DNA of 64,000 nt from a phage. Of this stretch, positions 26,341 through 45,502 are shown one piece after another. The stretch lies in the NCBI GenBank assembly GCA_025830695.1, contig GCA_025830695.1_4111.2. One strand, written 5' to 3'. A model generated the notes under the pieces. It was not told the DNA's origin. It ran no database searches and was given only the letters and a program-made list of their open reading frames with translations. The position numbers were made by a program, and so were the translations under genes. Within the stretch, counting starts at the first letter, position 1. Every line of letters starts with the position of its first letter.

Positions 26341-26371
26341 TATGATTGATATTAATTTTAAGGGAGTCCCT

Positions 26372-27828: not shown

Positions 27829-27986
27829 TGGTTTTCATTAACATATCTGACCAACTCGATACTAAACTAGAAGTCGAGCAGAGTGAGGGATGGATGCTGT
27901 ACTTTCTTGGAACTTCTCATCAAAATTTTTATATCCATGAACACATAGTTGCACTCACAAATCTAATAAGGGATAAATGTAAATGA
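27828..27986 (+). CDS. family B small paralog (52 aa)
   Basis: read by eye; TAATG junction; LGTSHQNFY. Confidence 0.5.
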   Translation: MVFINISDQLDTKLEVEQSEGWMLYFLGTSHQNFYIHEHIVALTNLIRDKCK

Positions 27987-28240
27987 AACACTTGACGGAC
28001 GATGAATATTCACTTAGAATTCGAAAGCTCACCCCAGAAGCAAGAGTAATCTACGATGACGATGCACTTTCATGGAACGAGATGAAAGTTAAAGTTCATG
28101 AGCTATGGTTGCTGTACTTTGTGGGAACCCAATATCAAGAGAAATATTGTACCGATTATCTTGAACAACTAATGGATCTTATACAGATAAAACTAAATGA
28201 ACGAATTGTGGAAAAATATGAAAACTTTATCAAGCACTGA
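27983..28240 (+). CDS. family B paralog with C-terminal extension (lost stop)
   Basis: VGTQYQEKY; usual ...KL-stop junction mutated so ORF reads 14 codons further. Confidence 0.55.
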   Translation: MKHLTDDEYSLRIRKLTPEARVIYDDDALSWNEMKVKVHELWLLYFVGTQYQEKYCTDYLEQLMDLIQIKLNERIVEKYENFIKH

Positions 28241-28469
28241 GTATCAGACTGCCCTCTTCTCTCTTCTAAACACCCTTCGCACTAACAATAAACTTTATAA
28301 TTCCCGTGAAGCTGATATCGTCAACGCTGATGTATATCTTAATAAATTCATAGGGACTAACTATCAAGAACTGTTCACTCTACGATATATCTCTGCATTG
28401 AGAAACGAAATATCAGATAAAACCCGCCAAGCCAGAAGAGAATGGAAGAAACAATGCGACAAAGACTAA
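28218..28469 (+). CDS. family B small paralog
   Basis: track ORF trimmed to MKTLSSTEYQ; IGTNYQELF. Confidence 0.5.
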   Translation: MKTLSSTEYQTALFSLLNTLRTNNKLYNSREADIVNADVYLNKFIGTNYQELFTLRYISALRNEISDKTRQARREWKKQCDKD

Positions 28470-28702
28470 ATCACAAAATGTATTGTAAACTATTGCAGAC
28501 ACTGGCACAGAAACACTATGACACGGTATCTGAAATATTACCCTATGATATCATGCGTTTACTTCACTGTGAGGCCGAGATGCTTGTACTGATGACAGGC
28601 ACTGATAAAACAGCAATCGCCAGATCGATAGAGCAATATATTGATGCACACTGCCAACACATGAGAACCGAAATCTGGAGGAAAGAGAATGATAATCCTT
28701 AA
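28442..28702 (+). CDS. family B-like paralog (divergent; start uncertain, 28442 or 28454)
   Basis: ORF track; MTGTDKTAI in motif position. Confidence 0.45.
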   Translation: MEETMRQRLNHKMYCKLLQTLAQKHYDTVSEILPYDIMRLLHCEAEMLVLMTGTDKTAIARSIEQYIDAHCQHMRTEIWRKENDNP

Positions 28703-28904
28703 TGAGTATCAGTATCATTGGAGGTTACAAACTATCAAATCAAAAGTGTATAGTATTGTGTTAAACAAATCTATTGCACAAGAGGACAAATGTGTTATAA
28801 TAGCTGAAATGAAGTTGGGTGTATTCGTAGGGACAAACTATCAAAACATCTACACTGACGTATTATTAAGTTCCTTACGTAACAAGGTGGTATCCAAAAT
28901 ATGA
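28689..28904 (+). CDS. family B small paralog
   Basis: VGTNYQNIY. Confidence 0.6.
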   Translation: MIILNEYQYHWRLQTIKSKVYSIVLNKSIAQEDKCVIIAEMKLGVFVGTNYQNIYTDVLLSSLRNKVVSKI

Positions 28905-29119
28905 GAAATTTACAAGGCTTTGAATACATCAGACTCCTGAAAACATGTGGAAGCAGAAGGAGAATGATATCAAGCGATAAGAGCATCCAAGCTAACCTTA
29001 AGCACGCACTAGTAACTGAACTCTATGTAGGTGCACTCTTAGGCACAAACTATCAACAAATGTATGTAGATCTATGGATTGACGCTCTACAGAAAGAGGT
29101 TAAAAGTAAATGCAAATGA
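28901..29119 (+). CDS. family B small paralog
   Basis: LGTNYQQMY. Confidence 0.6.
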   Translation: MRNLQGFEYIRLLKTCGSRRRMISSDKSIQANLKHALVTELYVGALLGTNYQQMYVDLWIDALQKEVKSKCK

Positions 29120-29328
29120 TTAATTTAAGTAAAGACGAATTTTATGTTCTACTGGCGAAAACTTATCCAGCACGGAAGGCCGTTTATGATAGTCACATTA
29201 TTGAACCCTCAAAGAAGTTGATTTTAGTAAATGAGATTAAGATGCTTTCAGTCTTAGGAACAAACTATCAAGAGAATGCTGTACTGATGTTAATTGATGC
29301 CCTCCAGAGAGAGATACAAAGTAAATGA
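29110..29328 (+). CDS. family B small paralog
   Basis: LGTNYQENA. Confidence 0.6.
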   Translation: MQMINLSKDEFYVLLAKTYPARKAVYDSHIIEPSKKLILVNEIKMLSVLGTNYQENAVLMLIDALQREIQSK

Positions 29329-29549
29329 TTAATTTAACTTACCATGAATATCAAAAACGTTTAAATGCATCCAGAGATATAAGGATTCAAATATTCAATA
29401 ACAAAAGATTGAAGCCTGATATCAGAAAAATCAAAATTATAGAAGCAGAGTTATGCAACTTTCTAGGGACCAACTATCAGGCAGGTAAGGTAAAAAACTA
29501 TCTTAGAGAACTAATGAATAGTATTGAAAATAAATGTAAGGGTAATTAA
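29325..29549 (+). CDS. family B small paralog
   Basis: LGTNYQAGK. Confidence 0.6.
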   Translation: MINLTYHEYQKRLNASRDIRIQIFNNKRLKPDIRKIKIIEAELCNFLGTNYQAGKVKNYLRELMNSIENKCKGN

Positions 29550-29550
29550 C

Positions 29551-29790
29551 ATGAAAATGATTAAATTATCTCAAGCAAAATATAAAGAACGCCTGGTAAA
29601 AATTGCACCTGGACTTAATGAAATCCATCACGGAGAAGTCATTAAACACGGAAATAAGATGATTATGAAACTTGAGTTAAAGGTGGGTGCATTCATAGGA
29701 ACAAACTATCAGGAGTATTATGTAGATGAATACATAATCGCACTTAAGAGATATATTGGAAGAAAACTATATCTACAAACTAAAGAATAG
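29551..29790 (+). CDS. family B small paralog
   Basis: track ORF trimmed to MKMIKLSQ; IGTNYQEYY. Confidence 0.55.
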   Translation: MKMIKLSQAKYKERLVKIAPGLNEIHHGEVIKHGNKMIMKLELKVGAFIGTNYQEYYVDEYIIALKRYIGRKLYLQTKE

Positions 29791-29819
29791 TATTGAAAAT
29801 AAATGTGAGGTTGATGAAC

Positions 29820-30083
29820 ATGCAAATGATCAATTTAAGTAAAGATGAATATACCGAGCGTATGACAAAAATTACGCACAAACGTAATACAATCTATCAC
29901 AACCCAGAAATTCAACACAGTAAGAAAATGATTATGATGCGTGAGTTAAAGATGGGTGTATTCTTAGGAACAAACTATCAAGATACAGAAGTAAATCGCT
30001 TAATCGCGGAGTTACTACTGGAAATCAGAGGTAAGCTGTACTTTTATCAAATGACCCAACCACTGAGGTGTACTAAGAAATGA
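29820..30083 (+). CDS. family B small paralog
   Basis: track ORF trimmed to MQMINLSKDEY; LGTNYQDTE; upstream junction duplicates preceding junction. Confidence 0.55.
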   Translation: MQMINLSKDEYTERMTKITHKRNTIYHNPEIQHSKKMIMMRELKMGVFLGTNYQDTEVNRLIAELLLEIRGKLYFYQMTQPLRCTKK

Positions 30084-30295
30084 ACAACATCACATTGCAA
30101 GAAAGATTCATCCGAATCAACTATGCAATTACCAAATTAGATGCTACTATAGGATTCCAAAGTCTACCATACAAAACCAGATTGTTATTAGAGTGTGAAG
30201 CTAAGTTGGGTGTACTGTTAGGGACGCAACACCAACAACGATATGTGGAAATCTGGATTGACCTTTTAACCCAAAATATATATGAGAGAATGTAA
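30080..30295 (+). CDS. family B small paralog
   Basis: LGTQHQQRY. Confidence 0.6.
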   Translation: MNNITLQERFIRINYAITKLDATIGFQSLPYKTRLLLECEAKLGVLLGTQHQQRYVEIWIDLLTQNIYERM

Positions 30296-30526
30296 ATGCA
30301 AAATGAAATGATATACTTAACGAATGAAGAATTTCAAGAGAAGATGTTAAAAACCAAAAACATTACTCTTAAGTTCGTTCCAAATCAATCAATATCTGAA
30401 GTATCTGCAAATGTATTGTTTCAGAAGCTACCATACGTTCTTGGAACTGATAAACAAGAATTTATGGTTCAAAATATGATTGAACATCTTATAATGAGTA
30501 TTAAGGAAAAAGTAAATGCAAAATGA
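30296..30526 (+). CDS. family B paralog (subtype with LPYxLGTD[KR]QE)
   Basis: MQNEMIYLTNEEF; near-duplicate N-terminus with next gene. Confidence 0.6.
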   Translation: MQNEMIYLTNEEFQEKMLKTKNITLKFVPNQSISEVSANVLFQKLPYVLGTDKQEFMVQNMIEHLIMSIKEKVNAK

Positions 30527-30770
30527 AATGATATACTTAACCTATAATGAATACGTCGAGAGATTAGTTCGTGCCAAGAGATATACCAATAAACGTCCAA
30601 TTGACCTAAACCAAACCCCAGCAGAAAGGAGTGCAGAAGTATTATTCCAATCACTACCATATCTTCTGGGAACTGATAGACAAGAGGAATATGTTGCACG
30701 TATGATTAGATATCTTAAAATCACTATTAAGGAAAAAGTAAATGAAAATGAAATACTTAACAGACGATGA
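30516..30770 (+). CDS. family B paralog (subtype LPYLLGTDRQE)
   Basis: MQNEMIYLTYNEY...PAERSAEVLF. Confidence 0.6.
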   Translation: MQNEMIYLTYNEYVERLVRAKRYTNKRPIDLNQTPAERSAEVLFQSLPYLLGTDRQEEYVARMIRYLKITIKEKVNENEILNRR

Positions 30771-30993
30771 GTTAAAAGAACGACTAATTAAATCAAGAAA
30801 ACATACAAATCAACTTCCAAACGACACAAACAAGTCTCCAGCGGAAAGGAGTGCAGAAGTTTTATACATTCAACTCATGTACTTTCTTGGCACTGACAGA
30901 CAAGAGTATTACATTGAAAGTATGCTTCGATATCTTAAATTCTCTATAAAGGAAAAGATACATGATCAAGTATTTAAAAATCCTAACAGCTAA
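30742..30993 (+). CDS. family B paralog (same subtype)
   Basis: PAERSAEVLYIQLMYFLGTDRQEYY. Confidence 0.6.
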   Translation: MKMKYLTDDELKERLIKSRKHTNQLPNDTNKSPAERSAEVLYIQLMYFLGTDRQEYYIESMLRYLKFSIKEKIHDQVFKNPNS

Positions 30994-31204
30994 TGAATAT
31001 CATAAGATTGTAATGAAGACTAATAGTGCTTACGCTAAAAAATCAAACCCCAAGTACATACTGGAACACACATTCGAAGAACGACAACTAGCTTTAGTTG
31101 AAGCAAAACTTCTTGCACTCTTAGGAACAAACTATCAAGAAGAATACATCAGAAAACTAATATACCTTTTAACTAAACATATAAGAAAAAGAAAAAATGC
31201 ATGA
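30962..31204 (+). CDS. family B small paralog
   Basis: LGTNYQEEY. Confidence 0.6.
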   Translation: MIKYLKILTANEYHKIVMKTNSAYAKKSNPKYILEHTFEERQLALVEAKLLALLGTNYQEEYIRKLIYLLTKHIRKRKNA

Positions 31205-31431
31205 AACACTTGACAGATGATGAACATGGGCTTATAGTAATGGATGTAATCAACATCGAATACAAAAAGTTGATACGCTATCGTTGTTATGAAGATAAGC
31301 AACTCGTTCTAGCAGAACAGAAGTTGTTTCGACTCTTAAACACAAACTACCAAGCACAATACGAAGAATCGTATATGTACCTTTTGGCGAGGAAAGCAAA
31401 AAGAGATTATGAAAATTTTAAGCAAAGGTGA
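31201..31431 (+). CDS. family B small paralog
   Basis: LNTNYQAQY. Confidence 0.6.
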   Translation: MKHLTDDEHGLIVMDVINIEYKKLIRYRCYEDKQLVLAEQKLFRLLNTNYQAQYEESYMYLLARKAKRDYENFKQR

Positions 31432-31630
31432 TTCAGTAATATTACTTATAGAGAGTTCAAGTAAATTCTTAAACATAACACTGTCTGATATAGATGAAGA
31501 TGACAAAGAAGTACTGAGAGCAGATTTAAGAGTACTGTTACATATCGGAACAAACCTACAAGAAGAATATGTAGAGTGCTACATCAATGAACTTAAAGAA
31601 TCAGTACTGAGAAAATGCAAATGCAAATGA
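31409..31630 (+). CDS. family B small paralog
   Basis: IGTNLQEEY. Confidence 0.55.
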   Translation: MKILSKGDSVILLIESSSKFLNITLSDIDEDDKEVLRADLRVLLHIGTNLQEEYVECYINELKESVLRKCKCK

Positions 31631-31848
31631 AAATCATTACCGATGTAGAATACCTAACAATCATAAATGGACTGTTTTTGAAGCTCTTCGTCATTAACAC
31701 ATCAGATATACCAGATATGGATAAAATTATTAAGAGAAATGAAGTCTATGTTCTAGCTACCCTTGGAACGAACTATCAAGAACACGACATTAAAGATTAT
31801 ATTAATACACTTAAACGAGCTATTGAACTAAAATGCCAAAACCACTAG
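31615..31848 (+). CDS. family B small paralog
   Basis: LGTNYQEHD. Confidence 0.55.
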   Translation: MQMQMKIITDVEYLTIINGLFLKLFVINTSDIPDMDKIIKRNEVYVLATLGTNYQEHDIKDYINTLKRAIELKCQNH

Positions 31849-32048
31849 GAACAGCAGAATACATTGAACTCATGGGATTACACTTCTCATCCTTTCAGAA
31901 ACTTATGCGAGAATCAAAGAATGATTTAGAATATACCATCAGAGGTTCCGATTTAAGAATGCTTCTCACCCTAGACACAGATTCCCAAGAGCGATTTGTC
32001 AATGAGCATATTAGAGCACTTTTAATGGAAATTAAAAGTAAACTATGA
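31833..32048 (+). CDS. family B small paralog
   Basis: LDTDSQERF. Confidence 0.55.
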   Translation: MPKPLGTAEYIELMGLHFSSFQKLMRESKNDLEYTIRGSDLRMLLTLDTDSQERFVNEHIRALLMEIKSKL

Positions 32049-32260
32049 AGATAATATCAAACCAAGAGTACTTGGCACTATTCAGGAAGAATAATCACAA
32101 ATATATGGCACTTGATTCAAGAACTGATATAAGTGAACTTGAAAAAAATCTTTTGCGTTCAGATATGATAGTACTGACACTCTTAGGAACACAGCATCAA
32201 GAGAGAACTGTTAATTCACACATAGGTATTCTTATACAGATTGTACAGGAAAAGATATGA
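32045..32260 (+). CDS. family B small paralog
   Basis: LGTQHQERT. Confidence 0.6.
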   Translation: MKIISNQEYLALFRKNNHKYMALDSRTDISELEKNLLRSDMIVLTLLGTQHQERTVNSHIGILIQIVQEKI

Positions 32261-32478
32261 GAATCATAACACAACAAGATATTCTTAAGTTCACAAGGGT
32301 TCATGCATCTGAATTTGATGCTATATTATCAAAAAGTTACAATGACCCTTATACACAAGATGTACATTACAGTGAATTATGGATGTATATACTTTTAGGT
32401 ACAAATAAGCAAGAGCAAGCCGTACAGAAGTATTTGACAGCTTTACGTGATGCTACTGCTAATGGAGTATGTGTTTAA
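32257..32478 (+). CDS. family B small paralog
   Basis: LGTNKQEQA. Confidence 0.6.
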   Translation: MRIITQQDILKFTRVHASEFDAILSKSYNDPYTQDVHYSELWMYILLGTNKQEQAVQKYLTALRDATANGVCV

Positions 32479-32479
32479 T

Positions 32480-32722
32480 ATGAAAGTACTGACAGAACTA
32501 GAAATGTATCATAGATTTAATAAGTACTATCATTTACTTAAGCCTATACAGAGGATTAAATGTCCATTTGAAGAGAAACAGGTTTTAATCTATGAGCACA
32601 AGTTCTTTGTATCATTAGGTACAGATCAACAAGAGTACTATTTGACGTTGTACTTGATTACATTAATAGATTTAATTCACTATAAAACCAAACAAGCTAA
32701 TAAAGAGAAATATGAAAACTAA
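32480..32722 (+). CDS. family B small paralog (last of main array)
   Basis: track ORF trimmed to MKVLTELEMY; LGTDQQEYY. Confidence 0.55.
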   Translation: MKVLTELEMYHRFNKYYHLLKPIQRIKCPFEEKQVLIYEHKFFVSLGTDQQEYYLTLYLITLIDLIHYKTKQANKEKYEN

Positions 32723-33056
32723 TATACAACTCAAGGTATATAAATCATTTGAACATACATATATCAAAAGTAGTCTATGTAGAGATGTAATGGATTACAA
32801 GGGTAAACCATTCACAATTACCTATGATTCTTATGTTAGTGATTTATATATATCATTTGTTAATTACGAAAATAAAATATACAAGCACGTTGATATTAAA
32901 GATTTAAGTACTTTATCACCAGAGGAATACTTTCAGGAATCATTAGTATGGGATTTAGAGTTTCCTATGCCATTAGTACATAAGATGATAGTACTAATGA
33001 AAGAATCTAAACAGGAGCCTAATGGTGATTATGAAGAACACATCGTTGAGTATTAA
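32712..33056 (+). CDS. family C paralog (E-E-x-Y/F-F-Q-x-S-L/T-V-x-D motif family)
   Basis: LSTLSPEEYFQESLVWD. Confidence 0.6.
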   Translation: MKTNIQLKVYKSFEHTYIKSSLCRDVMDYKGKPFTITYDSYVSDLYISFVNYENKIYKHVDIKDLSTLSPEEYFQESLVWDLEFPMPLVHKMIVLMKESKQEPNGDYEEHIVEY

Positions 33057-33426
33057 GAGTACTGATAATATTAAGAGTTATACAAGCTCAAGTACTGTGA
33101 CAATCGAAGTAAATTCTATTAATGCTGGTAATGCATTAGATAAGTTCTTTATTGCTCAAGGGTACAGGAAAGATATTCATCAATATTGTTCAGTATATGG
33201 GGAGTACAATAGTACTGAAGATATAATTTATTGGTCAACACATCAAGATTATATAACTAAAATTGGCGTTCCAGATGTTAGTACTTTATCTGAAGAAGAA
33301 TACTTTCAGTACAGCTTAGTACATGATTTACCTATACCTTTAGGGTTAATTAAGGGTATGCAGGAAGAGGTTCATAAGCTTAAATCCATGAGTAAAGGTA
33401 CTTTCATTAGAACAGTGCAATACTAG
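33022..33426 (+). CDS. family C paralog (start uncertain)
   Basis: VSTLSEEEYFQYSLVHD. Confidence 0.55.
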   Translation: MVIMKNTSLSIKSTDNIKSYTSSSTVTIEVNSINAGNALDKFFIAQGYRKDIHQYCSVYGEYNSTEDIIYWSTHQDYITKIGVPDVSTLSEEEYFQYSLVHDLPIPLGLIKGMQEEVHKLKSMSKGTFIRTVQY

Positions 33427-33427
33427 C

Positions 33428-33456
33428 TTGACAGTACTTTTCATTACTGATATAGT
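33428..33456 (+). promoter_or_regulatory. internal promoter in family C array
   Basis: TTGACA 33428-33433, 17 bp, TATAGT 33451-33456. Confidence 0.5.
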
Positions 33457-33485
33457 ACACTAACGTTAATCATAGGGTAAAAATT

Positions 33486-33731
33486 ATGTTAAATTTTTTA
33501 AATTTCCTTATCGTCTTGTGTATTGTTCTTGGGATTGCACCATTTGTATTGTATTTCATGGATTCAGATGAAATGCAGAAGATGAATTGCACAAGGACAG
33601 GACAGAGTAGAGTAGAGACGATTCTTATGCCTGTTACGGTTATTGTTAACAACATGCCCATTACAAACATGGTCCCTACCCTAACGACAACGTACCAGTA
33701 CTCTTGTGCTGACGGAGAGAGGTGGAGATGA
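33486..33731 (+). CDS. small membrane protein (hydrophobic N-terminus), hypothetical
   Basis: MLNFLNFLIVLCIVLGIAPFVLYF; downstream of promoter 33428. Confidence 0.45.
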   Translation: MLNFLNFLIVLCIVLGIAPFVLYFMDSDEMQKMNCTRTGQSRVETILMPVTVIVNNMPITNMVPTLTTTYQYSCADGERWR

Positions 33732-34048
33732 AATTTAATATAGCAAAAACATCGAGTATATGTATTTTTGGTTATGCTGATGAGTTAGGTGATATTGACA
33801 TTCTTTTGTACAAAAAGGATGGTGTTATGCATTTCAAGTACCAGGATGAAGAGGCAGACAATTATCCTTTACCTAATTTAGTACAAATGCAGGAAGATGA
33901 ATTATTCCAGTACAGCTTAGTATACGACATTGATATTTGCACGATGCCAGTACTAATTAGTATTCAAAAAGTGATGCTCGATATGTATGATAAGCTAATA
34001 CAAGGTACATCAGGGAGAATCATTGAAATCGATATACAAGACAATTAA
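33722..34048 (+). CDS. family C paralog
   Basis: MQEDELFQYSLVYD. Confidence 0.6.
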   Translation: MEMKFNIAKTSSICIFGYADELGDIDILLYKKDGVMHFKYQDEEADNYPLPNLVQMQEDELFQYSLVYDIDICTMPVLISIQKVMLDMYDKLIQGTSGRIIEIDIQDN

Positions 34049-34241
34049 TCAAGAATGGAAGACCCAAAAGTACAGGGAATTCAACAGGAATTTTACAAAA
34101 GATGCATTGAATTTAAAAACAACAGAGTTTGATATGTTTATTTTTCTTGGAACACGTTCACAAGAACAATTTGTTCATTATTATATAAATTCGTTGCGAA
34201 CGGAGATAGTATGCAAAACACAGGGTATTATAAAAAGGTAA
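34023..34241 (+). CDS. family B paralog interleaved in family C array
   Basis: FLGTRSQEQFV. Confidence 0.55.
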   Translation: MKSIYKTINQEWKTQKYREFNRNFTKDALNLKTTEFDMFIFLGTRSQEQFVHYYINSLRTEIVCKTQGIIKR

Positions 34242-34477
34242 ACCAATATTTGTACGCTACAAAGTACAGGGATTTTTGTTTAAAGGGTGGTGATGAAGAT
34301 TTTTCTTTGCGATTATCAGAATTTAATCTGTTATTTTATCTTGGTACAAAAGAACAAGAAGAAATGGCACAGAAATTTATCAAGCACCTTTTACAAAAAA
34401 TTAATATGCAAATTTTGATGCTTAAGTTACAGAATGAGATAAATGAATATGAATCCAGAAATAGTTCAGGATCTTAA
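34211..34477 (+). CDS. family B paralog interleaved in family C array
   Basis: YLGTKEQEEMA. Confidence 0.55.
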   Translation: MQNTGYYKKVNQYLYATKYRDFCLKGGDEDFSLRLSEFNLLFYLGTKEQEEMAQKFIKHLLQKINMQILMLKLQNEINEYESRNSSGS

Positions 34478-34835
34478 AAAAGTAATATTTCTTTTGAATA
34501 CCAGAAGTGAATTGTATACAGAGTTAAAAGAGATTAATGCATTTTATCAGAATTTTGTAATCCAAGAGATCAGTGATTTAATTACAGATGCATTATTTGA
34601 ATTATCGGAGAAATACAAAGGTTCAGAGTTCAGTGTTAAGAATGTTATTCGTCCAAGTGCAAGGAAAATTATATTATCACATTTTACATTTGACAATAAA
34701 GATTTATTCAGTCATAATCCAAGTACAGCTTTATATTTTATTCCTGATTCAGACAAAAATCATCCTATTCATTACGGATGGATTTTGTCATATATAGTAC
34801 AAGGAAAGGAGTATCCTATTAAATGGAAAGATTAG
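34443..34835 (+). CDS. hypothetical protein (130 aa), no family motif
   Basis: ORF track. Confidence 0.5.
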   Translation: MNMNPEIVQDLKKVIFLLNTRSELYTELKEINAFYQNFVIQEISDLITDALFELSEKYKGSEFSVKNVIRPSARKIILSHFTFDNKDLFSHNPSTALYFIPDSDKNHPIHYGWILSYIVQGKEYPIKWKD

Positions 34836-34983
34836 GGCGATTAGATTATTACACAATTAATACAAATTATTTGTTGCGTAATATAAAATCCGATTACAAA
34901 ATATGGATAAAGAACAGAGATAGCATGTGTTATGAATTTTATTTAGATTATGCTATCAAACGATTTTTAAGAGAAGAACATTA

Positions 34984-36899: not shown

Positions 36900-37384
36900 A
36901 GTTCAGCTTAGATGCTGCATTTAAATATGTTCACAAGATAGAAACAATATACAGTACATTATGTGCAATAAAATCAGTAACAGAAGAGCTTGATGTTGGT
37001 GAAAAATATCAGGTATGGAATAATACATTTTTAAATAAAGAACGTTGCTCTACGGGGTTTAATATTTTAACATTTAATCCCAGCAATTGTTACCCAGAGA
37101 AGCATGAACGTTATCCGAATGACGACATGTGGTTTGAGTACAAAGAAGATTGTGATATGTCGTTCATTGAAGTTCCTGATGATTTTAATGCACAAGATTT
37201 AACAGACGAGTGGTGGTTCCAGCAGAATTTAGTCCACGATGATATTGATTTATTTTTTTATGTAGTATTTAAAATGCTTTATCACAACAATATAGTACAA
37301 GATAGTGTATTTTTTTCATGTCTATATATTGATGATTTGTACAATGAAATTCAAATCAACATGCCCATAACGCCTGTATCGTAA
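36878..37384 (+). CDS. family C paralog
   Basis: TDEWWFQQNLVHD. Confidence 0.55.
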   Translation: MQYMYDLEFSLDAAFKYVHKIETIYSTLCAIKSVTEELDVGEKYQVWNNTFLNKERCSTGFNILTFNPSNCYPEKHERYPNDDMWFEYKEDCDMSFIEVPDDFNAQDLTDEWWFQQNLVHDDIDLFFYVVFKMLYHNNIVQDSVFFSCLYIDDLYNEIQINMPITPVS

Positions 37385-37409
37385 GATATGGGCTTTTTTC
37401 GTTTTGGTA

Positions 37410-37438
37410 TTGACATAGAAGACCAAAGCTGTTATCAT
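37410..37438 (+). promoter_or_regulatory. internal promoter in family C array
   Basis: TTGACA 37410-37415, 17 bp, TATCAT 37433-37438. Confidence 0.5.
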
Positions 37439-37466
37439 GTGTATTCATTTTAAAGGAGAACATATA

Positions 37467-38515: not shown

Positions 38516-39131
38516 TATGACCAGAATTAAAATGTATGATTTGATGCAGTACAGTAAAATTGCCATTCCAGTGCTTAATAAAGTGCTGGATGCATTCATT
38601 GCCAAATACCCTGAGAATTCAGTGTTATGTATTCCATTTAGTGTTCCAGATAAAGATGATATATTCCAAGTGAATGTCAGTACACGTGGTATTACATTAC
38701 AGCAGAAATACATGGATACGGAATATTATGGAATAAAGTTGGATTCAGTACAGGGTTCAAAATCAGCCTATGATTTTTTTGTTCCTAATAATATAGAGTC
38801 ATGGGAAACAAACATTTCAAAGAAAGATGAAAATGATGTTCCTATTAGTGGTGTGTTCAACAATAAAGTTTTTTATTATTACGAAACCGACAAATTCCCT
38901 GAAGAGTTATATTACAATTCAGAAATGAATGAAGATGTAGATGCATTCATGTTTCAATTATCTTTAGTACATGATATCATTGATGTTCAAGAGTTAAGAG
39001 CAGAAATCAATTTAGCTAAAGAGTTATCGGACATGCTGCCACCGTTTAGTATGCTTTTTTGTGAAGGTGGTTATTTTTCAAAAGAAGTGTTTGAACATTT
39101 CGTAGATGTTGTAAAAGGGTTGGATATATAG
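38508..39131 (+). CDS. family C paralog
   Basis: DVDAFMFQLSLVHD. Confidence 0.55.
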   Translation: MNDMTRIKMYDLMQYSKIAIPVLNKVLDAFIAKYPENSVLCIPFSVPDKDDIFQVNVSTRGITLQQKYMDTEYYGIKLDSVQGSKSAYDFFVPNNIESWETNISKKDENDVPISGVFNNKVFYYYETDKFPEELYYNSEMNEDVDAFMFQLSLVHDIIDVQELRAEINLAKELSDMLPPFSMLFCEGGYFSKEVFEHFVDVVKGLDI

Positions 39132-39132
39132 T

Positions 39133-39327
39133 ATGCTTACAGTTGATGTTAAACAAAAATACCGTAAGTTTGATTGGTTCACCGACAGCTTCCAGCTTGA
39201 ATTATTACATTTGAATATCTGTGAAACATTATGTGCAGAAACACAAGATGAATTTGATGATAGAGTGATGAACATAGTAATGCTTTCTTGCTTTAAACAT
39301 TTTGGTTATTTTTTCGGACAGAATTGA
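39133..39327 (+). CDS. hypothetical small protein (64 aa)
   Basis: ORF track. Confidence 0.4.
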   Translation: MLTVDVKQKYRKFDWFTDSFQLELLHLNICETLCAETQDEFDDRVMNIVMLSCFKHFGYFFGQN

Positions 39328-39335
39328 GGTAAAAA

Positions 39336-39851
39336 ATGCATCAACACAAGCATCATTCATATGATTTTGCAATTAACATTATGAAGTTCATTCGAGCGTT
39401 GGAGGATGGGAAGCTTAGTCATAAGTACACCAAAGTAGGTGACAATTGGTTCAGAAATGATGATGAGTTCAGAAGTCATAAGATTGTTTACAGCAATAAT
39501 TACAGTGCCAATTACCTACAAGATGTAGTGATGTGTTTTGAATACGTGTTGCAGTTCAGGGGTTCAATCCAGGATGAGTTGATGGAGCACATGTACATCC
39601 GATACCTTCCAATGCTCAAAGATGAAAATGTATTATTAAATTCAATATACCAACGAGTTCGTGAAATTGAGTGCAGGGATATATTAGATACAGAAGAATC
39701 GTATTTCCAGCAATCCCTGATTTATGCACCTGATTTATTACAGGTACATAATTTGTTTAATACATTACGTCAAAACATCAGTACAGACATATTTTTGTCA
39801 TTATCGAATTATGATACATTTGTCAAAGATTTAGAGGAAATAGGTTTATGA
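39336..39851 (+). CDS. family C paralog
   Basis: TEESYFQQSLIYAPD. Confidence 0.6.
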   Translation: MHQHKHHSYDFAINIMKFIRALEDGKLSHKYTKVGDNWFRNDDEFRSHKIVYSNNYSANYLQDVVMCFEYVLQFRGSIQDELMEHMYIRYLPMLKDENVLLNSIYQRVREIECRDILDTEESYFQQSLIYAPDLLQVHNLFNTLRQNISTDIFLSLSNYDTFVKDLEEIGL

Positions 39852-40192
39852 GTCGATTTTCGGTTTATATAGTAAACGTCAGTAAAGATGGTAGTTTAAT
39901 TGAATTTGATGTAGTTGATAACAATGATAATTCATATGGTATTAAGGTACAGGACAATGATGTACAGTTCAGTACAAGGACAAATTTTGAGAATCCAGTC
40001 CAAGTTCCGAATTTCATAGAAGATGAAGCTGCACGATTCCAATACGAAACGGCATATGACAATGTACATATGCATATTATTATGCAAACGAGTTTAGTTC
40101 AATTAGTTCCTTTGTTCAGACAAAATATATATGTACATGAAGTGTCGATTAATGGCATTCAAAGTTCCGTTTTGTTCGGTACAAATATGTAA
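39848..40192 (+). CDS. family C-like paralog (degenerate motif)
   Basis: DEAARFQYETAYD. Confidence 0.5.
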   Translation: MSRFSVYIVNVSKDGSLIEFDVVDNNDNSYGIKVQDNDVQFSTRTNFENPVQVPNFIEDEAARFQYETAYDNVHMHIIMQTSLVQLVPLFRQNIYVHEVSINGIQSSVLFGTNM

Positions 40193-40202
40193 GGAAAGTA
40201 CA

Positions 40203-40754
40203 ATGAGTTCAATGAGTTTATTAGATACATTAGAAAAAGACAGAAGTGCAATTAAGCGTTTAAAAGAGCAAGTACAAAAGATTGTATACAACGTTGATAA
40301 GTTTGAAGTCCCAGGAAGATTTGGTGATATTTCCCATACGGAGATCAAATCCCTTAAGTCAGATTTGTTGATTAAAAATAAAAATGGGTTGATTTTAGTT
40401 TTGAGTTCAGATATGATGGGGGCAACACATAGTTATAATGCAGTATCGGTGCGTTCAGAGTGTGAAGGTATATATCTATCACAGGGTTTCAATAGCGAGA
40501 CACAGGTTTGTTTTTGTGATGCAGTACATGACCCTATGAAGTTCACGAGAAGTGAAGCCCAAGCGTTATTAGAGCTATCAGACGAGAGTTTGTTTCAGTA
40601 CAGTACAATGTATGACAATGATAAGCTTCGTTGTATGTACGCTGTAAAGCATTATACACAGGAGTTTTCTGGATTTGCATACCTTTTAGTTAGAACCAAT
40701 ACCAGATATATTGATATGTTAGAAGATTACATCGATAAAGTTGTTAATGTATGA
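40203..40754 (+). CDS. family C paralog
   Basis: track ORF trimmed to MSSMSLLD (SD AAGGAAAG); SDESLFQYSTMYD. Confidence 0.55.
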   Translation: MSSMSLLDTLEKDRSAIKRLKEQVQKIVYNVDKFEVPGRFGDISHTEIKSLKSDLLIKNKNGLILVLSSDMMGATHSYNAVSVRSECEGIYLSQGFNSETQVCFCDAVHDPMKFTRSEAQALLELSDESLFQYSTMYDNDKLRCMYAVKHYTQEFSGFAYLLVRTNTRYIDMLEDYIDKVVNV

Positions 40755-40936
40755 TGTATGATTATGGGATGGGATAATGCTGATGAAAGAGTTATTTGAA
40801 GATCAGTTCAATACATATGTGGATAATATTCTTTATTCCAGCCGTGCTAGTCAACGAGGAAATCGTGCTTACAATATAGATTACCTATTAGTGGTGCTGA
40901 GTTCACAGTACACCAATGCGGTACAAAGGGTTTATT

Positions 40937-41146
40937 ATGAAAAGTGCAAGTAATAGTGATATTGCAAAGGAGAAGTTCAAGTGCAGTTTAGATTTTGGGT
41001 TAAATGATTTTCTGACATGCACAATGTACAGGAATGATGATTATGAGCAATCCGTAATTTCGTTGCACAGATATTTCGAAATAATTTACGCAAGATATCT
41101 TAGAAGGTTAGAGGGAATAGGGGATTGGAATTATGATTACGTTTGA
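40937..41146 (+). CDS. hypothetical small protein
   Basis: track ORF 40916..41146 trimmed to MKSASNSD; region 40760-41550 looks degraded. Confidence 0.3.
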   Translation: MKSASNSDIAKEKFKCSLDFGLNDFLTCTMYRNDDYEQSVISLHRYFEIIYARYLRRLEGIGDWNYDYV

Positions 41147-41552
41147 AGAGCCGGAAGTGGCATATTGCTTTAGTGTGAAAGGTTTTGAATTCATGATGGA
41201 TTCTATTTTGAAGGATACATATTTGGTTCAGATTGCAGTTCCAGATAATACAGATAATGCATTACAGTGAGTATTGAATATATACGAGAGGACGAGTCGA
41301 AGGCTTTGTGCAATGAAAAGGATTGAAGAAATCAAGCTTTCTATGCTGAATAAATAGAGACGTTTCATTTTGACAGGCCGCAGGGGGTCAAAAAAATTTC
41401 CGCTGAAAAACATGCTAAGGTATATGTTTAATATAAAGTTTTATATTGTGTTTTTCAGAGTACAGTTCATGTTTCTTGAAACAAAAAATACCCCGCCGCC
41501 GAACGTTCTCCTTATATTGGAGTTTACCTTATTAATTATAGTAGAGATTAAG

Positions 41553-41930
41553 ATGGAAATAAAATATAATGAATTTTGTGCAAGGACATGGATGTACACT
41601 GGTGAGTTAGTTACGCACTCTAACTTATACAAGGGTGATTTAAACTACGCTAGGGACAAGATTTTAAAGTACTGGAATGCTGACTTTTATTTGATGGATT
41701 TTAGTACTGGGTTTAGGGGTAAAGCAACCGAGATGTTGGACTATACAGTACTTGATGATGCTGCACTGTTTCAGGCGGCATTAGTATTTGATAAGAAGTA
41801 CATCTGTACATTAGAAGAGATGATTGAATTACAGCGTAGAATTAAATGTATTCACAGAGAATGTATAGACATCTGGTGCAGTACTGGTGAAGATGATTTT
41901 TGTAATCATTTCAATCTAGGGGAAGAGTGA
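41553..41930 (+). CDS. family C paralog
   Basis: track ORF trimmed to MEIKYNEF (SD GAGATTAAG); LDDAALFQAALVFDKKY. Confidence 0.55.
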   Translation: MEIKYNEFCARTWMYTGELVTHSNLYKGDLNYARDKILKYWNADFYLMDFSTGFRGKATEMLDYTVLDDAALFQAALVFDKKYICTLEEMIELQRRIKCIHRECIDIWCSTGEDDFCNHFNLGEE

Positions 41931-42091
41931 TGGAATTTGATTTTTTAATATCAGTACATTCTTTTAAGCACAGTTATCAGTACTTTTGTAATTTAAACAA
42001 AGGTGATTTGATTATGGATACAGATACAGAGGCTGTATACAGTTCTAATATTCTGTACAAATTCAGTACTAATCTGAAGGAGATTTTATGA
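41930..42091 (+). pseudogene. truncated duplicate of the N-terminus of 42459..42815
   Basis: 53-codon ORF MEFDFLISVHSFKHSYQYFCNLNKGDL... matches the first 27 aa of the 42459 gene then diverges and stops. Confidence 0.5.
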
Positions 42092-42459
42092 AAAAAGAAA
42101 TTAGAATTCAATTCGGTATGAGGAAAAAAGAGGTCATCTGTACACTGAATCATGCGGTCGTGGAAAGCCTTGGTGGTGCATTACAAAAATTCTCCCATTT
42201 TGTTCTTGTACTATATGAAAATGGGTCTTTTAAAATCTTCACATATGATGATTCAAAAAATTACCGTAATGATTTTGTAAATCTGACAGTACTGTCAGAA
42301 GAGGAATTCTTTCAGGAAAGTACTGTCTGGAATTTACCAGGAGCACCAATTGAATACGTCCGTGCTACACAGGCAGAAATGATCAAAGTAATGCAGAACT
42401 ATCCAGAAGATTATATGACTAAGTTTCCTGAATCTATTTATGTAGAGGTTGAGTACTGA
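42088..42459 (+). CDS. family C paralog
   Basis: LSEEEFFQESTVWN. Confidence 0.6.
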   Translation: MKKEIRIQFGMRKKEVICTLNHAVVESLGGALQKFSHFVLVLYENGSFKIFTYDDSKNYRNDFVNLTVLSEEEFFQESTVWNLPGAPIEYVRATQAEMIKVMQNYPEDYMTKFPESIYVEVEY

Positions 42460-42815
42460 TGGAATTTGATTTTTTAATATCAGTACATACTTTCAAGCAC
42501 AGTTATCAGTACTTTTGTAATTTAAACAAAGGTGATTTAATGCACAGTGCAAATGAGTATATTCATTACACTCAGGGTAAATTTACATTCATTGATTACA
42601 GTTCATTACAGTATCCACACCAAGATATGCCGGACTATACATTAATGGATACCGCAGAACTATTCCAAGAATCATTAGTATTTGATAAGAAGTACTTGTG
42701 TACATTTGAAGAAGTTATTGCAATACAAAATGAAATGAAAGAGTATGCTGCTTTGCATAAACCCAATGCAAGTATTAATCAAGAATACAAATTCAATTTA
42801 GGAATTCAAGAATGA
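42459..42815 (+). CDS. family C paralog
   Basis: MDTAELFQESLVFDKKY. Confidence 0.6.
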   Translation: MEFDFLISVHTFKHSYQYFCNLNKGDLMHSANEYIHYTQGKFTFIDYSSLQYPHQDMPDYTLMDTAELFQESLVFDKKYLCTFEEVIAIQNEMKEYAALHKPNASINQEYKFNLGIQE

Positions 42816-43171
42816 CATATGATTATTCTATGTACTATTATAAGTTACCTAAAGGATGGGACTTGTGCTGTAATCTTATTAAGGGCGACTCGGAACATGA
42901 GTTGAGTTTATATATGCATTACAAAGATTCTTGTTTTAAATTTATTCATGTATCACATGACGACTATGACTATGAATCTGAGAGTCTTATAGATTATACA
43001 GTACTGGACGATGGTGAACTATTTCAGGCTGCATTAGTGTTTGATAAGAATAAGTACTCCTGTACATTTGAAGAAATGGTTTCTTTGCAAAATGAAATGA
43101 AGAGATTTGAAAAAGAAAACGTATTTAATCCATCCCCATCAAGAACGAATAATTATTATTTCAATATATGA
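42812..43171 (+). CDS. family C paralog
   Basis: LDDGELFQAALVFDKNKY. Confidence 0.6.
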   Translation: MTYDYSMYYYKLPKGWDLCCNLIKGDSEHELSLYMHYKDSCFKFIHVSHDDYDYESESLIDYTVLDDGELFQAALVFDKNKYSCTFEEMVSLQNEMKRFEKENVFNPSPSRTNNYYFNI

Positions 43172-43180
43172 GATTATAAA

Positions 43181-43672
43181 ATGACATTACAGAGTTCATT
43201 GGAAAAAGCAAAGAAGATTCATGAGTACATGAATATGGCAAAAGAAGGTTCAGTTTACGGTGTTTTCAAAGACACAAGTACTCAATATTATGTACCGGAT
43301 AACCTCCTTTATAATGACTGCTCAGATACAGAAACGTGCGTACTGGATACAGAAACGTGCATACTAGATACCGACCCTAATGATTATGAATGCTTCATTA
43401 ATATGCATAATGAGTACATGGTCTATATTAATGATACAGATACCATCAACAGTACTGACAGCGATTCCAATGACATTATAATTCCGAGTGAAGTACTGGA
43501 AGGTCCGTGGGATAGTGAAGAGTATTACTTCCAACAAAGTACTGTATATGATAATGAAGTACTTGATGTTATTATAATTATGTGGTACTTTAAAAGTATT
43601 GGTTCTGGGAACTTCTATTTCGATTACAAATACGTAAAGAAAACTGTAGATAACGGTATTAACAGGGGTTGA
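43181..43672 (+). CDS. family C paralog (subfamily MSLQSALEKAKKIHEYM...GPWDSEEYYFQ...MWYFKS)
   Basis: first of five consecutive close paralogs. Confidence 0.65.
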   Translation: MTLQSSLEKAKKIHEYMNMAKEGSVYGVFKDTSTQYYVPDNLLYNDCSDTETCVLDTETCILDTDPNDYECFINMHNEYMVYINDTDTINSTDSDSNDIIIPSEVLEGPWDSEEYYFQQSTVYDNEVLDVIIIMWYFKSIGSGNFYFDYKYVKKTVDNGINRG

Positions 43673-43673
43673 A

Positions 43674-44144
43674 ATGAGTTTAGAAAGAGCATTAGAGATT
43701 GCGAAGTTAATTGATTTATGCAGCAAAGAAATTGTAGCAAATTGTCTTAATGGATATCTATTCAAGGAAGGTAAATCATATTGTCGAATGAGATACGATG
43801 ACAGTAGTGAGTACATTCACATGTATGAAGAAAACTTAGATTCTTCTGAAACAACACTCAATGGGTGTGATGTTAATTTGGAAGATAATTACATGTACTT
43901 CTGTCGTGATGCTGATATTTTAATACAAGATTCTGACATTATATCTGGTGCAGCAGAGAAACATCTTCCGTATTCAGTACTGGATAATGACTGGGGAAGT
44001 GAAGAGTACTACTTCCAGCAGAATACTATCTACGAGGAAGATGTACTTGACAAGCTTGTCATTCTGTGGTACTTTAATAATACAGATTGTCCTAGCTTCT
44101 ATTTGGACTTGGATCTACTACGAGTTATTAAAGAGGATATATGA
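43674..44144 (+). CDS. family C paralog (same subfamily)
   Basis: WGSEEYYFQQNTIYEED. Confidence 0.65.
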   Translation: MSLERALEIAKLIDLCSKEIVANCLNGYLFKEGKSYCRMRYDDSSEYIHMYEENLDSSETTLNGCDVNLEDNYMYFCRDADILIQDSDIISGAAEKHLPYSVLDNDWGSEEYYFQQNTIYEEDVLDKLVILWYFNNTDCPSFYLDLDLLRVIKEDI

Positions 44145-44584
44145 GTTTAGCAAGTGCACTTGAACTAGCACACAGAATACATCACTTCCACGATAACATA
44201 AAAAGTGGTTTCTATGGTGATAAAGTAAGTGCATTTGGTAATGAGTATTATCTATCAGGTATAAAGACATACTCTGATGATATTTTACTTATGGGTCATG
44301 ATAAAGACAATACTATACAGTACTCTTCATGTAGTCAATATACTAATTTTTTTGTATATATTCCAGGTACTAAGATTACTTTTGACACAACAAATACACC
44401 TGTTGACTTCGGGGTACTTGATGGCCCGTGGGGTACTGAAGAGTATTACTTCCAACAGAGTCTCATTTTTAACCAAGAAAATCTTGATTCCTTGGTTGTG
44501 TTGTGGTACTTTAAGGAATTGAATTTTGAACCATTCTTTCTTGACTGGGGAGCATGTGAATATTTAAGTACAGGGGATTTGTAA
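44141..44584 (+). CDS. family C paralog (same subfamily)
   Basis: WGTEEYYFQQSLIFNQ. Confidence 0.65.
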   Translation: MSLASALELAHRIHHFHDNIKSGFYGDKVSAFGNEYYLSGIKTYSDDILLMGHDKDNTIQYSSCSQYTNFFVYIPGTKITFDTTNTPVDFGVLDGPWGTEEYYFQQSLIFNQENLDSLVVLWYFKELNFEPFFLDWGACEYLSTGDL

Positions 44585-45072
44585 TGTCATTACAAAGTGC
44601 ATTGAAAGAAGCAAAGAAGATTCATGAGTACATGATTATGGTACAGGAAGGTTCAGTACCAGGTGTATATAAAACATCTGATACTGAATTTTTTGTAAAA
44701 GACCGTGACGATTATGACGAGTCCGAGATATGTGCAGAAACATTAGTACTGCACACTGATACTGGTGACAGTGATAACTGTGAATATCATATGTACAATC
44801 AGTACATTAGTTATTGCCGTAATGAAGATATTACCATCTACAACACAGATAGTGATGCTGATGACACTATCATTCCTTATTCAGTACTGGAAGGTCCGTG
44901 GGATAGTGAAGAGTATTACTTCCAGAATACTACGTTGTACAATGAAGAAGAATTAGATGTTATTGTAATTATGTGGTATTTCAAAAGTATTGACTCCAGT
45001 AGTTTCTATTTTGATTATGAATATGTAGAGAATACTGTAGGAGAAGGTAATGTCATTACAAAGTGCTCTTGA
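44584..45072 (+). CDS. family C paralog (same subfamily)
   Basis: WDSEEYYFQNTTLYNEE. Confidence 0.65.
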   Translation: MSLQSALKEAKKIHEYMIMVQEGSVPGVYKTSDTEFFVKDRDDYDESEICAETLVLHTDTGDSDNCEYHMYNQYISYCRNEDITIYNTDSDADDTIIPYSVLEGPWDSEEYYFQNTTLYNEEELDVIVIMWYFKSIDSSSFYFDYEYVENTVGEGNVITKCS

Positions 45073-45502
45073 AAAAGCAAAAGAACTACATGGATACTTT
45101 GACGATATAAAGGCAGGAAAGTTCAAAGAAGTGTACAAAGCCGAGAACGGCAACTACTACAAAGATGAAATGTATAATAACTCCGTGGGTGTAAGGGTTA
45201 TTCTTGGGTTGAATTCCAATAGTCCTATATCGTTTTCTGAATACAATAGAGATGCAGAATTTATTAGTTATGTTGAAAATGGTAGCATTCGTTTTATTAA
45301 TCGCAAAAAACCATTAATTTTGAATTATGAAGTACTGGATGGTCCGTGGGATAGTGAAGAGTATTACTTCCAAAACAGTACTGTTTACGATGATGAAGTA
45401 CTTGAAGCATTAGTTATTATGTGGTACTTAAAGAGTGTTAACTGTCCTCGATTTTATTTGGATTTCGAAGAACTTCGTAAAGATCCAGAAGGTATAGAAT
45501 GA
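45050..45502 (+). CDS. family C paralog (same subfamily)
   Basis: WDSEEYYFQNSTVYDDE. Confidence 0.65.
   Translation: MSLQSALEKAKELHGYFDDIKAGKFKEVYKAENGNYYKDEMYNNSVGVRVILGLNSNSPISFSEYNRDAEFISYVENGSIRFINRKKPLILNYEVLDGPWDSEEYYFQNSTVYDDEVLEALVIMWYLKSVNCPRFYLDFEELRKDPEGIE

Follow-up and report, generated by a model that had tools for sequence, protein, structure and literature searches.

Tandem arrays of two orphan gene families in an Asteriusvirus jumbo coliphage: local duplication, unit turnover between isolates and limited decay

The analysed window (64,000 nucleotides; GenBank assembly GCA_025830695.1, contig GCA_025830695.1_4111.2) belongs to an Asteriusvirus (RaK2-like) jumbo coliphage and shares 99.6% identity with Escherichia phage vB_EcoM_G17. 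Its ORF list contains two arrays whose genes are closely packed head to tail on a single strand (+); genes are designated below by their first position in the window. The Family A array (26342-32722, from the ORF list and alignment) holds 29 units of ~65-87 aa with the motif LGTNYQE, and stop and start codons overlap between units. Two outlying units, identified by alignment inside the second array (34023-34241 and 34211-34477), vary among isolates and bring the family to about 31 units of ~70 aa sharing GTNYQ. The Family B array (32712-61045), delineated from the ORF list, alignment and PHROG matches, comprises about 50 units (50 or more), each 100-200 aa long. They share the motif (S/T)xEExxFQxS(L/T)V, in which F-Q is invariant. 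This array runs well beyond position 45502, where the first-pass annotation had ended, to about 61045. The two orphan families thus take up ~35 kb of the window, about one tenth of a 350-370 kb genome.

The Family A profile matched phrog_4148 (1e-18 to 1e-22) and Family B matched phrog_9317, 15629, 12674, 13866, 19795 and 30243; none of the PHROGs matched by the two families has an annotated function. For the ten representatives searched, Pfam returned nothing above the gathering score, and matches from profile searches of 5.8 billion proteins were confined to Asteriusvirus-like contigs. The AF2 model of Family A is a four-helix structure (pLDDT 97), and the confident Family B model has no match among solved folds. 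A reading of the Family B motif as a TEV-type protease site (ExxYxQ, then S/G) was rejected: the model places the motif in its helical region of highest order (pLDDT ~98), and nothing indicates a protease.

The window has 36 related Asteriusvirus records, and breakpoint-level detail came from 11 natural relatives; the relatives referred to by name are G17, SHEFM2K, slurp01, CRJP21, BF17, 121Q, ph0011, TH47, PBECO4, UE-S1 and EC22.5-2. Isolates were mapped unit by unit via orthologues; colinear HSP-chaining was dropped since paralogous matches gave misleading gaps.

Units resemble their neighbours significantly more than they resemble remote units. At lag 1 the mean Smith-Waterman score was 85 in Family A, against 59 in shuffled orders; Family B gave 60 versus 43 (p = 5e-5 in both cases). 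Similarity fell to background at lag 3-4 in both families, and the immediate neighbour was the best paralogue for 11 of 29 Family A and 9 of 51 Family B units. This similarity, together with duplication junctions that do not line up with the gene borders (see below), supports a tandem-duplication origin. The units arose via local tandem duplication, as the first-pass annotation had proposed. In many cases the segment that was duplicated does not respect gene borders: it takes in the 3' end of a gene plus the 5' part of the following gene, which leaves behind repeated junctions and, now and then, a gene fragment. The further claim that the duplications are recent was not supported. The closest paralogues share 55% protein and at most 76% DNA identity; even the best unit pairs (70-76% DNA identity) thus show no duplication event caught in the act. 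The DNA divergence between duplicates is 24% or more, the sole exception being an 85-nt partial copy at 96.5% identity, and copy number equals that of the 99.6%-identical G17. In the gene accordions of poxviruses (K3L), the copy number of a host-interaction gene shifts by recombination between tandem copies, and the copies are recent, nearly identical and variable within a population. Near-identical tandem copies of this type are absent from the phage arrays, where the copies differ by 24-45% in DNA and selection maintains each of them.

Two junctions in Family A illustrate the geometry of these duplications. Self-blastn and multi-genome alignment delimit a 269-bp unit (29494-29762) that begins in the 29325 gene, whose last 56 nt it includes, and continues through most of the 29551 gene; 121Q, TH47 and ph0011 lack this unit. 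The reported out-of-frame repeat of one junction by the next was borne out: 29494-29714 and 29763-29983 are 75.7% identical across 222 nt and contain an identical 22-nt core (29516-29537 and 29785-29806). The first copy of this core codes for the C-terminus of the 29325 gene; the second follows the stop of the 29551 gene (29788-29790), in the out-of-frame junction copy at 29763-29819, which is intergenic past that stop. The 30296 and 30516 genes, described earlier as sharing their start, indeed have a 30-nt identical run (30292-30321 and 30512-30541), the rest of the two genes being 67% identical (permutation p = 0.0005). The 220-bp unit between these junctions (30296-30515) is exactly what BF17 and PBECO4 lack, and TH47 and 121Q have a different unit order. 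Both sets of identical stretches include the ribosome-binding and start region, so that selection on translation could keep them alike.

In Family B, a 532-bp segment (41927-42458) has three parts: 85 nt that repeat the 5' end of the 42459 gene, a linker of 79 nt and a gene at 42088-42459. The 42459 gene itself (42459-42815) shares 28-38% aa identity with its paralogues, the 41553 and 42812 genes. The small ORF 41930-42091 (53 aa) had been taken to repeat the N-terminus of the 42459 gene, and it does: 27 of its first 28 residues match, and 41928-42012 is identical to 42457-42541 at 82 of 85 nt (96.5%). Past nt 85 it has no demonstrable homology to that gene. The possibility that 41927-42091 is a decayed full-length paralogue was discarded, as no convincing alignment could be obtained beyond nt 85 even with the longer 121Q version. 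PBECO4, ph0011, TH47 and UE-S1 lack the whole 532-bp segment, and in these four genomes the upstream stop overlaps the downstream start.

The arrays had also been described as decaying. Pooled orthologue dN/dS values of 0.25-0.36 (against four relatives) indicate purifying selection; entries flagged as stop or frameshift in this calculation come from coordinate extraction across indels and are no evidence of pseudogenes. The majority of units are old, and purifying selection acts on them. The 27983 gene (27983-28240, 85 aa) does read 14 residues beyond the usual ...SK(L/I) end of Family A, as had been noted from the sequence. Its 258-nt ORF is also annotated in G17, slurp01, CRJP21, 121Q and ph0011 and similar tails occur in ~10 of 31 Family A units, so that the extension is no recent loss of the stop; the dN/dS of the gene is 0.22-0.28. 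Similarly, the region 40760-41550, said to contain only short, degraded ORFs, holds three small ORFs (40777-40953, 40916/40937-41146 and 41133-41270; 53-59, 67-76 and 69-81 aa) that are conserved in all 11 relatives compared, so that this description was mostly wrong. Only ORF 41133-41270 is cut short, by a CGA to TGA change at 41268-41270 seen in the window alone. Between this ORF and the 41553 gene lies a non-coding gap (41271-41552), and promoter-like matches occur at 41370-41397 and 41542-41570; in a sigma-70 scan of the arrays, promoter-like sites were not above chance. Conserved small ORFs, a conserved long ORF and low dN/dS thus speak against general decay; true decay is limited to a single gene fragment, a single nonsense codon and, perhaps, a truncated unit. 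The 41268 nonsense codon, a single base restricted to the window, could be a sequencing error or laboratory mutation. This is the point in favour of an artefact, in which an assembler collapsed or expanded repeats and fragments are sequencing errors. We consider such an origin of the arrays highly improbable, as paralogues at most 76% identical in DNA are too diverged to mislead an assembler and isolates obtained independently, in different countries and by different sequencing projects, show this architecture as well.

The claim that the arrays are turning over was supported by the comparison of isolates. In a census scoring each of 67 units for a close orthologue, one was found for all 67 in G17, 65 in slurp01, 63 in SHEFM2K (median identity 99.7%), 61 in CRJP21, 59 in BF17, 50 in 121Q and 26 in ph0011. 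Genomes that are 98-99.7% identical over shared units have 2-8 of the 67 units absent or replaced; close isolates differ by the gain, loss or replacement of whole units, and any presence/absence difference may be either a gain or a loss. The breakpoints fall at conserved unit junctions, in short near-identical stretches at unit starts and ends. An additional paralogue of the 35184 gene occurs in slurp01 and BF17; its identity is 94% over the first 50 nt, drops to ~50% in the middle and rises to 80-100% towards the 3' end, and a 5' fragment of the next gene lies ahead of it.

Much of the variation between isolates resembles allele replacement, which phage-phage exchange could yield without any event within a genome. 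One could accordingly imagine arrays that are ancient and static in each lineage, with co-infecting divergent phages swapping blocks of units and no current duplication, deletion or conversion within a genome. Several observations fit: identity to a single relative leaps between 100% and ~75% from one unit to its neighbour, the block 27390-28240 is replaced alike in SHEFM2K, BF17 and EC22.5-2, and the 85-nt fragment in the window equals the full-length gene of PBECO4, which a crossover between two types also gives. Exchange as the only process is nevertheless a doubtful account, because several exact one-unit gains or losses are bounded by repeats of the same array, as unequal exchange between paralogues yields, and because one substitution present in several paralogues of a genome (see below) is not explained by block import alone. 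Mosaic exchange and unequal exchange within an array are compatible and can both hold.

Evidence on gene conversion comes in part from the five-paralogue cluster at 43181-45502 (43181-43672, 43674-44144, 44141-44584, 44584-45072 and 45050-45502). These five consecutive genes are mutually closest relatives, as first described, and "close" has to be read with the caveat that they share 29-55% protein and 57-70% DNA identity and that the closest pair (43181 and 44584) is not adjacent. TH47 and ph0011 carry four paralogues in place of five. A candidate conversion tract at 43492-43534 is identical over 33-42 nt to 44883-44924 and 45341-45373, and the identity extends to synonymous sites, over 12-13 codons. 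Identical runs between units exceed their expected length (p = 0.0001-0.0005), and the same-codon excess in the motif tract (p = 0.0035-0.026) is modest once corrected for ten comparisons. In addition, a CCG to CAG (P to Q) change is found in paralogues 1, 4 and 5 of slurp01 and 1 and 4 of 121Q, and in paralogue 3 only of BF17. In 121Q and CRJP21 the 5' patch of the 41927 fragment has diverged, but the version in the window is the same as the full-length gene of PBECO4. Concerted evolution of whole units is not seen, orthologues being 85-100% identical and paralogues at most 76%. For short tracts only, excess identity including synonymous sites and derived changes common to paralogues give gene conversion moderate support (best p = 0.0035, uncorrected).

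Constraint without conversion might also keep these stretches alike, through translation initiation or coupling signals at the two Family A junctions and an essential protein motif in the Family B tract. The junction runs do cover Shine-Dalgarno and start sequences where genes are tightly coupled, the tract codes for the most conserved residues of the family and the units are under purifying selection. We judge constraint alone unlikely to be the explanation: it does not account for the identical synonymous positions over the same codons, for the P to Q change common to several paralogues, or for other family members having other junction sequences and other codons for the same motif. Moreover, no RNA structure explaining the identical tract was found (z = -0.13).

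The reading that we hold to be probable is that these are two phage-lineage-specific multigene families under slow birth-and-death evolution, with recombination at junctions. It is consistent with same-strand head-to-tail paralogues, similar neighbours, copy-number differences and fragments or pseudogenes (the 41927-42091 fragment and the nonsense codon at 41268) alongside functional copies. In such a process, unequal homologous recombination in replicating or co-infecting genomes would act on the junction stretches of adjacent units and so delete, duplicate or swap cassettes; short-tract conversion may hold these stretches alike as unit interiors diverge. The arrays are old, selected and slowly exchanged, which corrects the impression of young or rotting arrays and makes them candidates for host-interaction functions. 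Their proteins might tentatively be seen as small non-enzymatic binders for host takeover or counter-defence, and diversity of the repertoire might itself be favoured by selection; the Pfam, PHROG and fold comparisons gave no match, annotated function or informative fold that directly supports such a role. Going further, the arrays could be a diversified effector repertoire whose near-identical junctions and motif tracts are kept because cassettes can thereby be shuffled among adjacent units and among co-infecting phages. Family B, given its invariant F-Q and a confident model unlike any solved fold, would then be a new protein superfamily that RaK2-like jumbo phages have in common, directed against variable host targets such as defence systems; we think this rather improbable. 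Breakpoint detail from 11 relatives shows how orphan families get built and reshuffled, and the conserved junctions are predictable sites of deletion or rearrangement when these therapeutic-candidate phages are engineered or propagated.

Literature on RaK2-like phages, the same phage group, describes same-strand arrays of lineage-specific small genes without assigned function and ascribes them to duplication; we found in it no analysis of the junctions, isolate variation or conversion of these two arrays. The arrays are a well-documented example of a known process, in which these three aspects are measured here. In the lpl cluster of Staphylococcus aureus, a short conserved nucleotide stretch in each unit is the site of homologous recombination, and the evolutionary unit runs from the 3' end of an ORF across the junction into the 5' end of the following ORF, strains differing by rearranged units (Tsuru and Kobayashi 2008, PMC2568036). 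The phage arrays resemble it in the probable recombination role of a repeated stretch, in units spanning ORF junctions and in rearranged units among strains; the conserved stretch of the bacterial cluster lies mid-ORF, whereas in the phage arrays it is found where genes adjoin or within the F-Q motif. Modular shuffling in the hyperplastic regions of T4-type phages is mediated by PeSLs (Arbiol et al. 2010, PMC2839356; PMC4122927). There, short repeats located between small genes that are not essential bring about insertions, deletions and replacements that set close relatives apart, much as the junction repeats of the present arrays may do. PeSLs, however, are promoter and stem-loop cassettes, and the repeats in the phage arrays are paralogous gene ends. 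A search for such cassettes (sigma-70 promoter plus stem-loop) gave no strong match at 26-46 kb, all strong matches lying at 8.4-25.4 kb. This stretch, just upstream of the arrays, contains about 20 PeSL-like elements.

The interval at 27983-45502 is matched across its full length at 99.6% identity by Escherichia phage vB_EcoM_G17 (G17). Matches were found in 36 phage records, 310-386 kb long and all from jumbo phages of Escherichia or Salmonella, and every fetched record with a taxonomy line was classed as Asteriusvirus (RaK2-like myoviruses). Every gene under the match is annotated as "hypothetical protein". The real genes of the window all lie on the + strand and are densely packed, stop codons overlapping the start codons that follow. 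Three tandem paralogue families are visible. Family A (26342-32722, + strand) contains 29 aligned units of 65-87 aa carrying the motif LGTNYQE, and the alignment also places two outlying units at 34023-34477 (+). Family B extends from 32712 to about 61045 on the + strand, with about 50 units of 100-200 aa that share (S/T)xEExxFQxS(L/T)V, where F and Q are invariant or nearly so. Given these extents, the interval takes in the greater part of family A and about the first third of family B; past its end, about 28 further, highly diverged family B units occupy the ~15 kb at 45502-61045. No Pfam match was found for the ten representative proteins tested, and the PHROG matches of the array proteins were only to families of unknown function.

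The first-pass annotation had proposed that the interval bears signs of recent tandem duplication, gene conversion and decay, on the basis of six local observations that proved largely right. Neighbouring units are indeed more alike than distant ones, the comparison that the annotation had itself put forward as its refutation. When unit order was shuffled 20,000 times, the mean Smith-Waterman score of adjacent units was 85 in family A (59 +/- 4 shuffled) and 60 in family B (43 +/- 3 shuffled), with p=5e-5 for both. The excess was weaker at lag 2 and absent by lag 3-4, and the best paralogue was an immediate neighbour for 11/29 family A and 9/51 family B units. This signal stems from a few sub-clusters (26969/27181; 29110/29551/29820; 30296/30516/30742; 30962/31201; 41553/42459/42812; and 43181 to 45050, all named by start coordinate), and outside them a unit's identity to any other is only ~29% in family A and 10-20% in family B. 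Tandem duplication is thus borne out: local duplication is the origin of the arrays, whose bulk is nevertheless ancient.

The duplications are not recent. No pair of units in this genome exceeds 55% protein or 76% DNA identity, whereas identity to the orthologues in other Asteriusvirus genomes is mostly 85-100%, so that most duplications in this genome predate most of the sampled diversity of the genus. A recent "accordion" amplification was rejected as a reading of the arrays. General decay was equally mistaken: pooled Nei-Gojobori dN/dS against the relatives 121Q, UE-S1, TH47 and ph0011 was 0.31-0.36 in family A and 0.25-0.35 elsewhere in the region, values of moderate purifying selection and not of neutral decay. 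Core genes would be expected to be under stronger constraint than this, and selection here is relaxed relative to that expectation.

In order to follow turnover, the 67 units of the window were compared one by one with 11 related phages, a close orthologue being defined by at least 85% identity and at least 80% coverage. Orthologues were found for 67/67 units in G17 (median identity of shared units 100.0%), 63 in SHEFM2K (99.7%), 65 in slurp01 (99.0%), 61 in CRJP21 (98.5%), 60 in EC22.5-2 (99.1%), 59 in BF17 (98.6%), 59 in PBECO4 (97.9%; one of the units lacking there is truncated where the locus ends), 50 in 121Q (95.5%), 49 in UE-S1 (92.9%), 35 in TH47 (93.3%) and 26 in ph0011 (89.2%). Unit content therefore changes while shared sequence is still 98-99.7% identical, so that the claim of active turnover is right at the population level. 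A second mode of change is evident where one unit is 100% identical to a relative and the unit next to it only ~75%, a mosaicism of the kind usually left by exchange between co-infecting phages.

Four turnover events were resolved to the base, and they share a theme: the ends of units resemble each other far more than the interiors do, and the breakpoints lie in those ends. The first is a 269-bp unit (29494-29762, +) missing from 121Q, TH47 and ph0011. Its left edge falls among the codons for the C-terminus of the gene before it, which accounts for the reported out-of-frame repeat of a junction: 29494-29714 and 29763-29983 are 75.7% identical across 222 nt, and their common core GAATAGTATTGAAAATAAATGT encodes the C-terminus of the 29325 gene in the first copy and lies 3' of the stop codon in the second. 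The second is a 220-bp unit (30296-30515, +) whose exact extent is absent from BF17 and PBECO4. Its two edges lie in the identical starts noted for the 30296 and 30516 genes, where 30292-30321 equals 30512-30541 over 30 nt in genes that elsewhere share 67% identity (permutation p=0.0005); TH47 and 121Q have other units, or units in another order, between the copies of this 30-mer.

The third event concerns a 532-bp segment (41927-42458, +) made of an 85-nt copy, a 79-nt linker and the gene 42088-42459. As the annotation had seen, the ORF at 41930-42091 repeats the N-terminus of the 42459 gene, with 27 of the first 28 residues identical (82/85 nt), by far the most similar repeat within the interval. 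PBECO4, ph0011, TH47 and UE-S1 lack the segment, and in them the 41553-type gene ends in a stop that overlaps the start of the 42459-type gene. Were the two 85-nt repeats to recombine, exactly this structure would result; the reverse event, an insertion that duplicated 85 nt, is possible. The 121Q linker is 60 nt longer, the extra sequence being flanked by TAATRTTCTGTRCAA repeats. The fourth event is an extra 168-aa paralogue of the 35184 gene in slurp01 (10965-11542 of its locus L002) and BF17. Its identity to 35184 is 94% over the first 50 nt, drops to ~50% in the central part and is 80-100% at the 3' end. Ahead of it stands a short piece from the 5' end of the next (35722-type) gene, an architecture matching that of the 41927 fragment.

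The five consecutive genes at 43181-45502, described as close paralogues, are mutual best relatives, but with 29-55% protein and 57-70% DNA identity they are close only relative to the family B background of 10-25%. The two most similar, 43181 and 44584, lie three units from each other. Since orthologues resemble one another much more than paralogues do, concerted evolution of whole units is excluded. Short-tract conversion, or equivalent ectopic exchange between phages, is moderately supported by four lines of sequence evidence, so that the gene conversion claim is plausible at this scale. Paralogue pairs share identical runs longer than overall divergence predicts (p=0.0001-0.0005, in a test that takes no account of constraint varying along the gene). 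In the stretch that encodes VLEGPWDSEEYYFQ, the 43181, 44584 and 45050 genes are identical over 32-42 nt, every synonymous site included; identical residues use the same codon in 12/12 to 12/13 cases inside this tract and in ~58-61% outside (Fisher p=0.0035-0.026, modest once corrected for ten comparisons). A CCG to CAG change (Pro to Gln) in the tract is found in slurp01 paralogues 1, 4 and 5, in 121Q paralogues 1 and 4 and in BF17 paralogue 3 only, and in none of the window's. An RNA structure accounting for the tract was looked for and none was found. The 5' patch of the 41927 fragment is counted among the four lines: it is diverged by 12 nt in 121Q and CRJP21, and in the window and slurp01 it equals PBECO4's full-length gene.

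Individual signs of decay fared unevenly. The 27983 gene (85 aa) does extend 14 residues beyond the usual end. Its 258-nt ORF is likewise annotated in G17, slurp01, CRJP21, 121Q and ph0011, at only 79-83% DNA identity in the last two, with dN/dS of 0.22-0.28, and ~10 other family A units carry tails of 8-20 residues; a stop may have been lost, but if so the loss is old and retained, not recent. The interval 40760-41550, said to hold only degraded ORFs, contains three small ORFs whose protein sequence is conserved in 11/11 relatives, including the most distant, ph0011, and which look like real small genes. Only the third is cut short, from 74 to 45 aa, by a CGA to TGA change at 41268-41270 specific to the window; the remaining 280 nt are a non-coding gap preceding the next gene block. 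A 52-aa family A unit at 27828-27986 lacks ~20 N-terminal residues and may be truncated; together with 27604-27828 it is missing from SHEFM2K, BF17, EC22.5-2 and ph0011. Read-through fusions occur too, since the 154-aa protein P0001, from an ENA metagenome contig, joins the 30962 and 31201 orthologues in frame.

RaK2-like and other jumbo phages are known to have paralogue families and tandem duplications (PMC3622015, PMC5259590, PMC7824862, PMC7247149); no analysis of these arrays was found in that literature. The mechanism resembles that of the lpl cluster of S. aureus, in which recombination takes place at a conserved stretch that every unit has, and what evolves as a unit extends over two neighbouring ORFs (PMC2568036). 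PeSL shuffling in T4-type phages (PMC2839356) is alike in outcome, but PeSL-type cassettes are absent within the arrays. The arrays add a well-documented case to an evolutionary process that is already known, in two protein families that are uncharacterised.

Immediately upstream of the arrays, at 8.4-25.4 kb, is a region rich in strong host-type promoters; neither such promoters nor the ~75-nt elements of that region were found inside the arrays. A terminator-like hairpin with a T run (37372-37393), annotated as a terminator in G17 and UE-S1 too, and a promoter-like site 3' of it (TTGACA-17-TATCAT, 37410-37438) would split the family B array into transcription blocks. This hairpin and promoter-like sites in the few intergenic gaps suggest long polycistronic transcripts. 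From context, the array proteins may act in host takeover or counter-defence.

The ~75-nt intergenic element is present at 8380-25440 in at least 16 aligned copies (~20 strong promoter-pattern matches), one in front of each small gene. It combines a strong sigma-70-type promoter (AAAAAGTACTTGCAAA-N17-GTATAATGTTTTACAT), a conserved GC hairpin (GGGGGAAAtgGTTCTCCCC) and a ribosome-binding site, and resembles the PeSL cassettes. Family C (2293-6515, +), also outside the interval, has ~20 units of ~60 aa that match phrog_11711, with an N-terminal M(N/H)KE(F/Y)Y and an LLIYRY-like C-terminal end; some of its internal DNA repeats reach 75-87% identity. Within it, a 223-aa gene (3913-4584) carries a family-B-like motif (LSEEELFMYSTVID), suggesting that units moved between arrays. 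On the minus strand, a 406-aa ORF (988-2208) is rich in repeated G-x-N-x-x-G-(Q/E)-x-G motifs and, judged from its translation, may encode an RCC1-like beta-propeller repeat protein.
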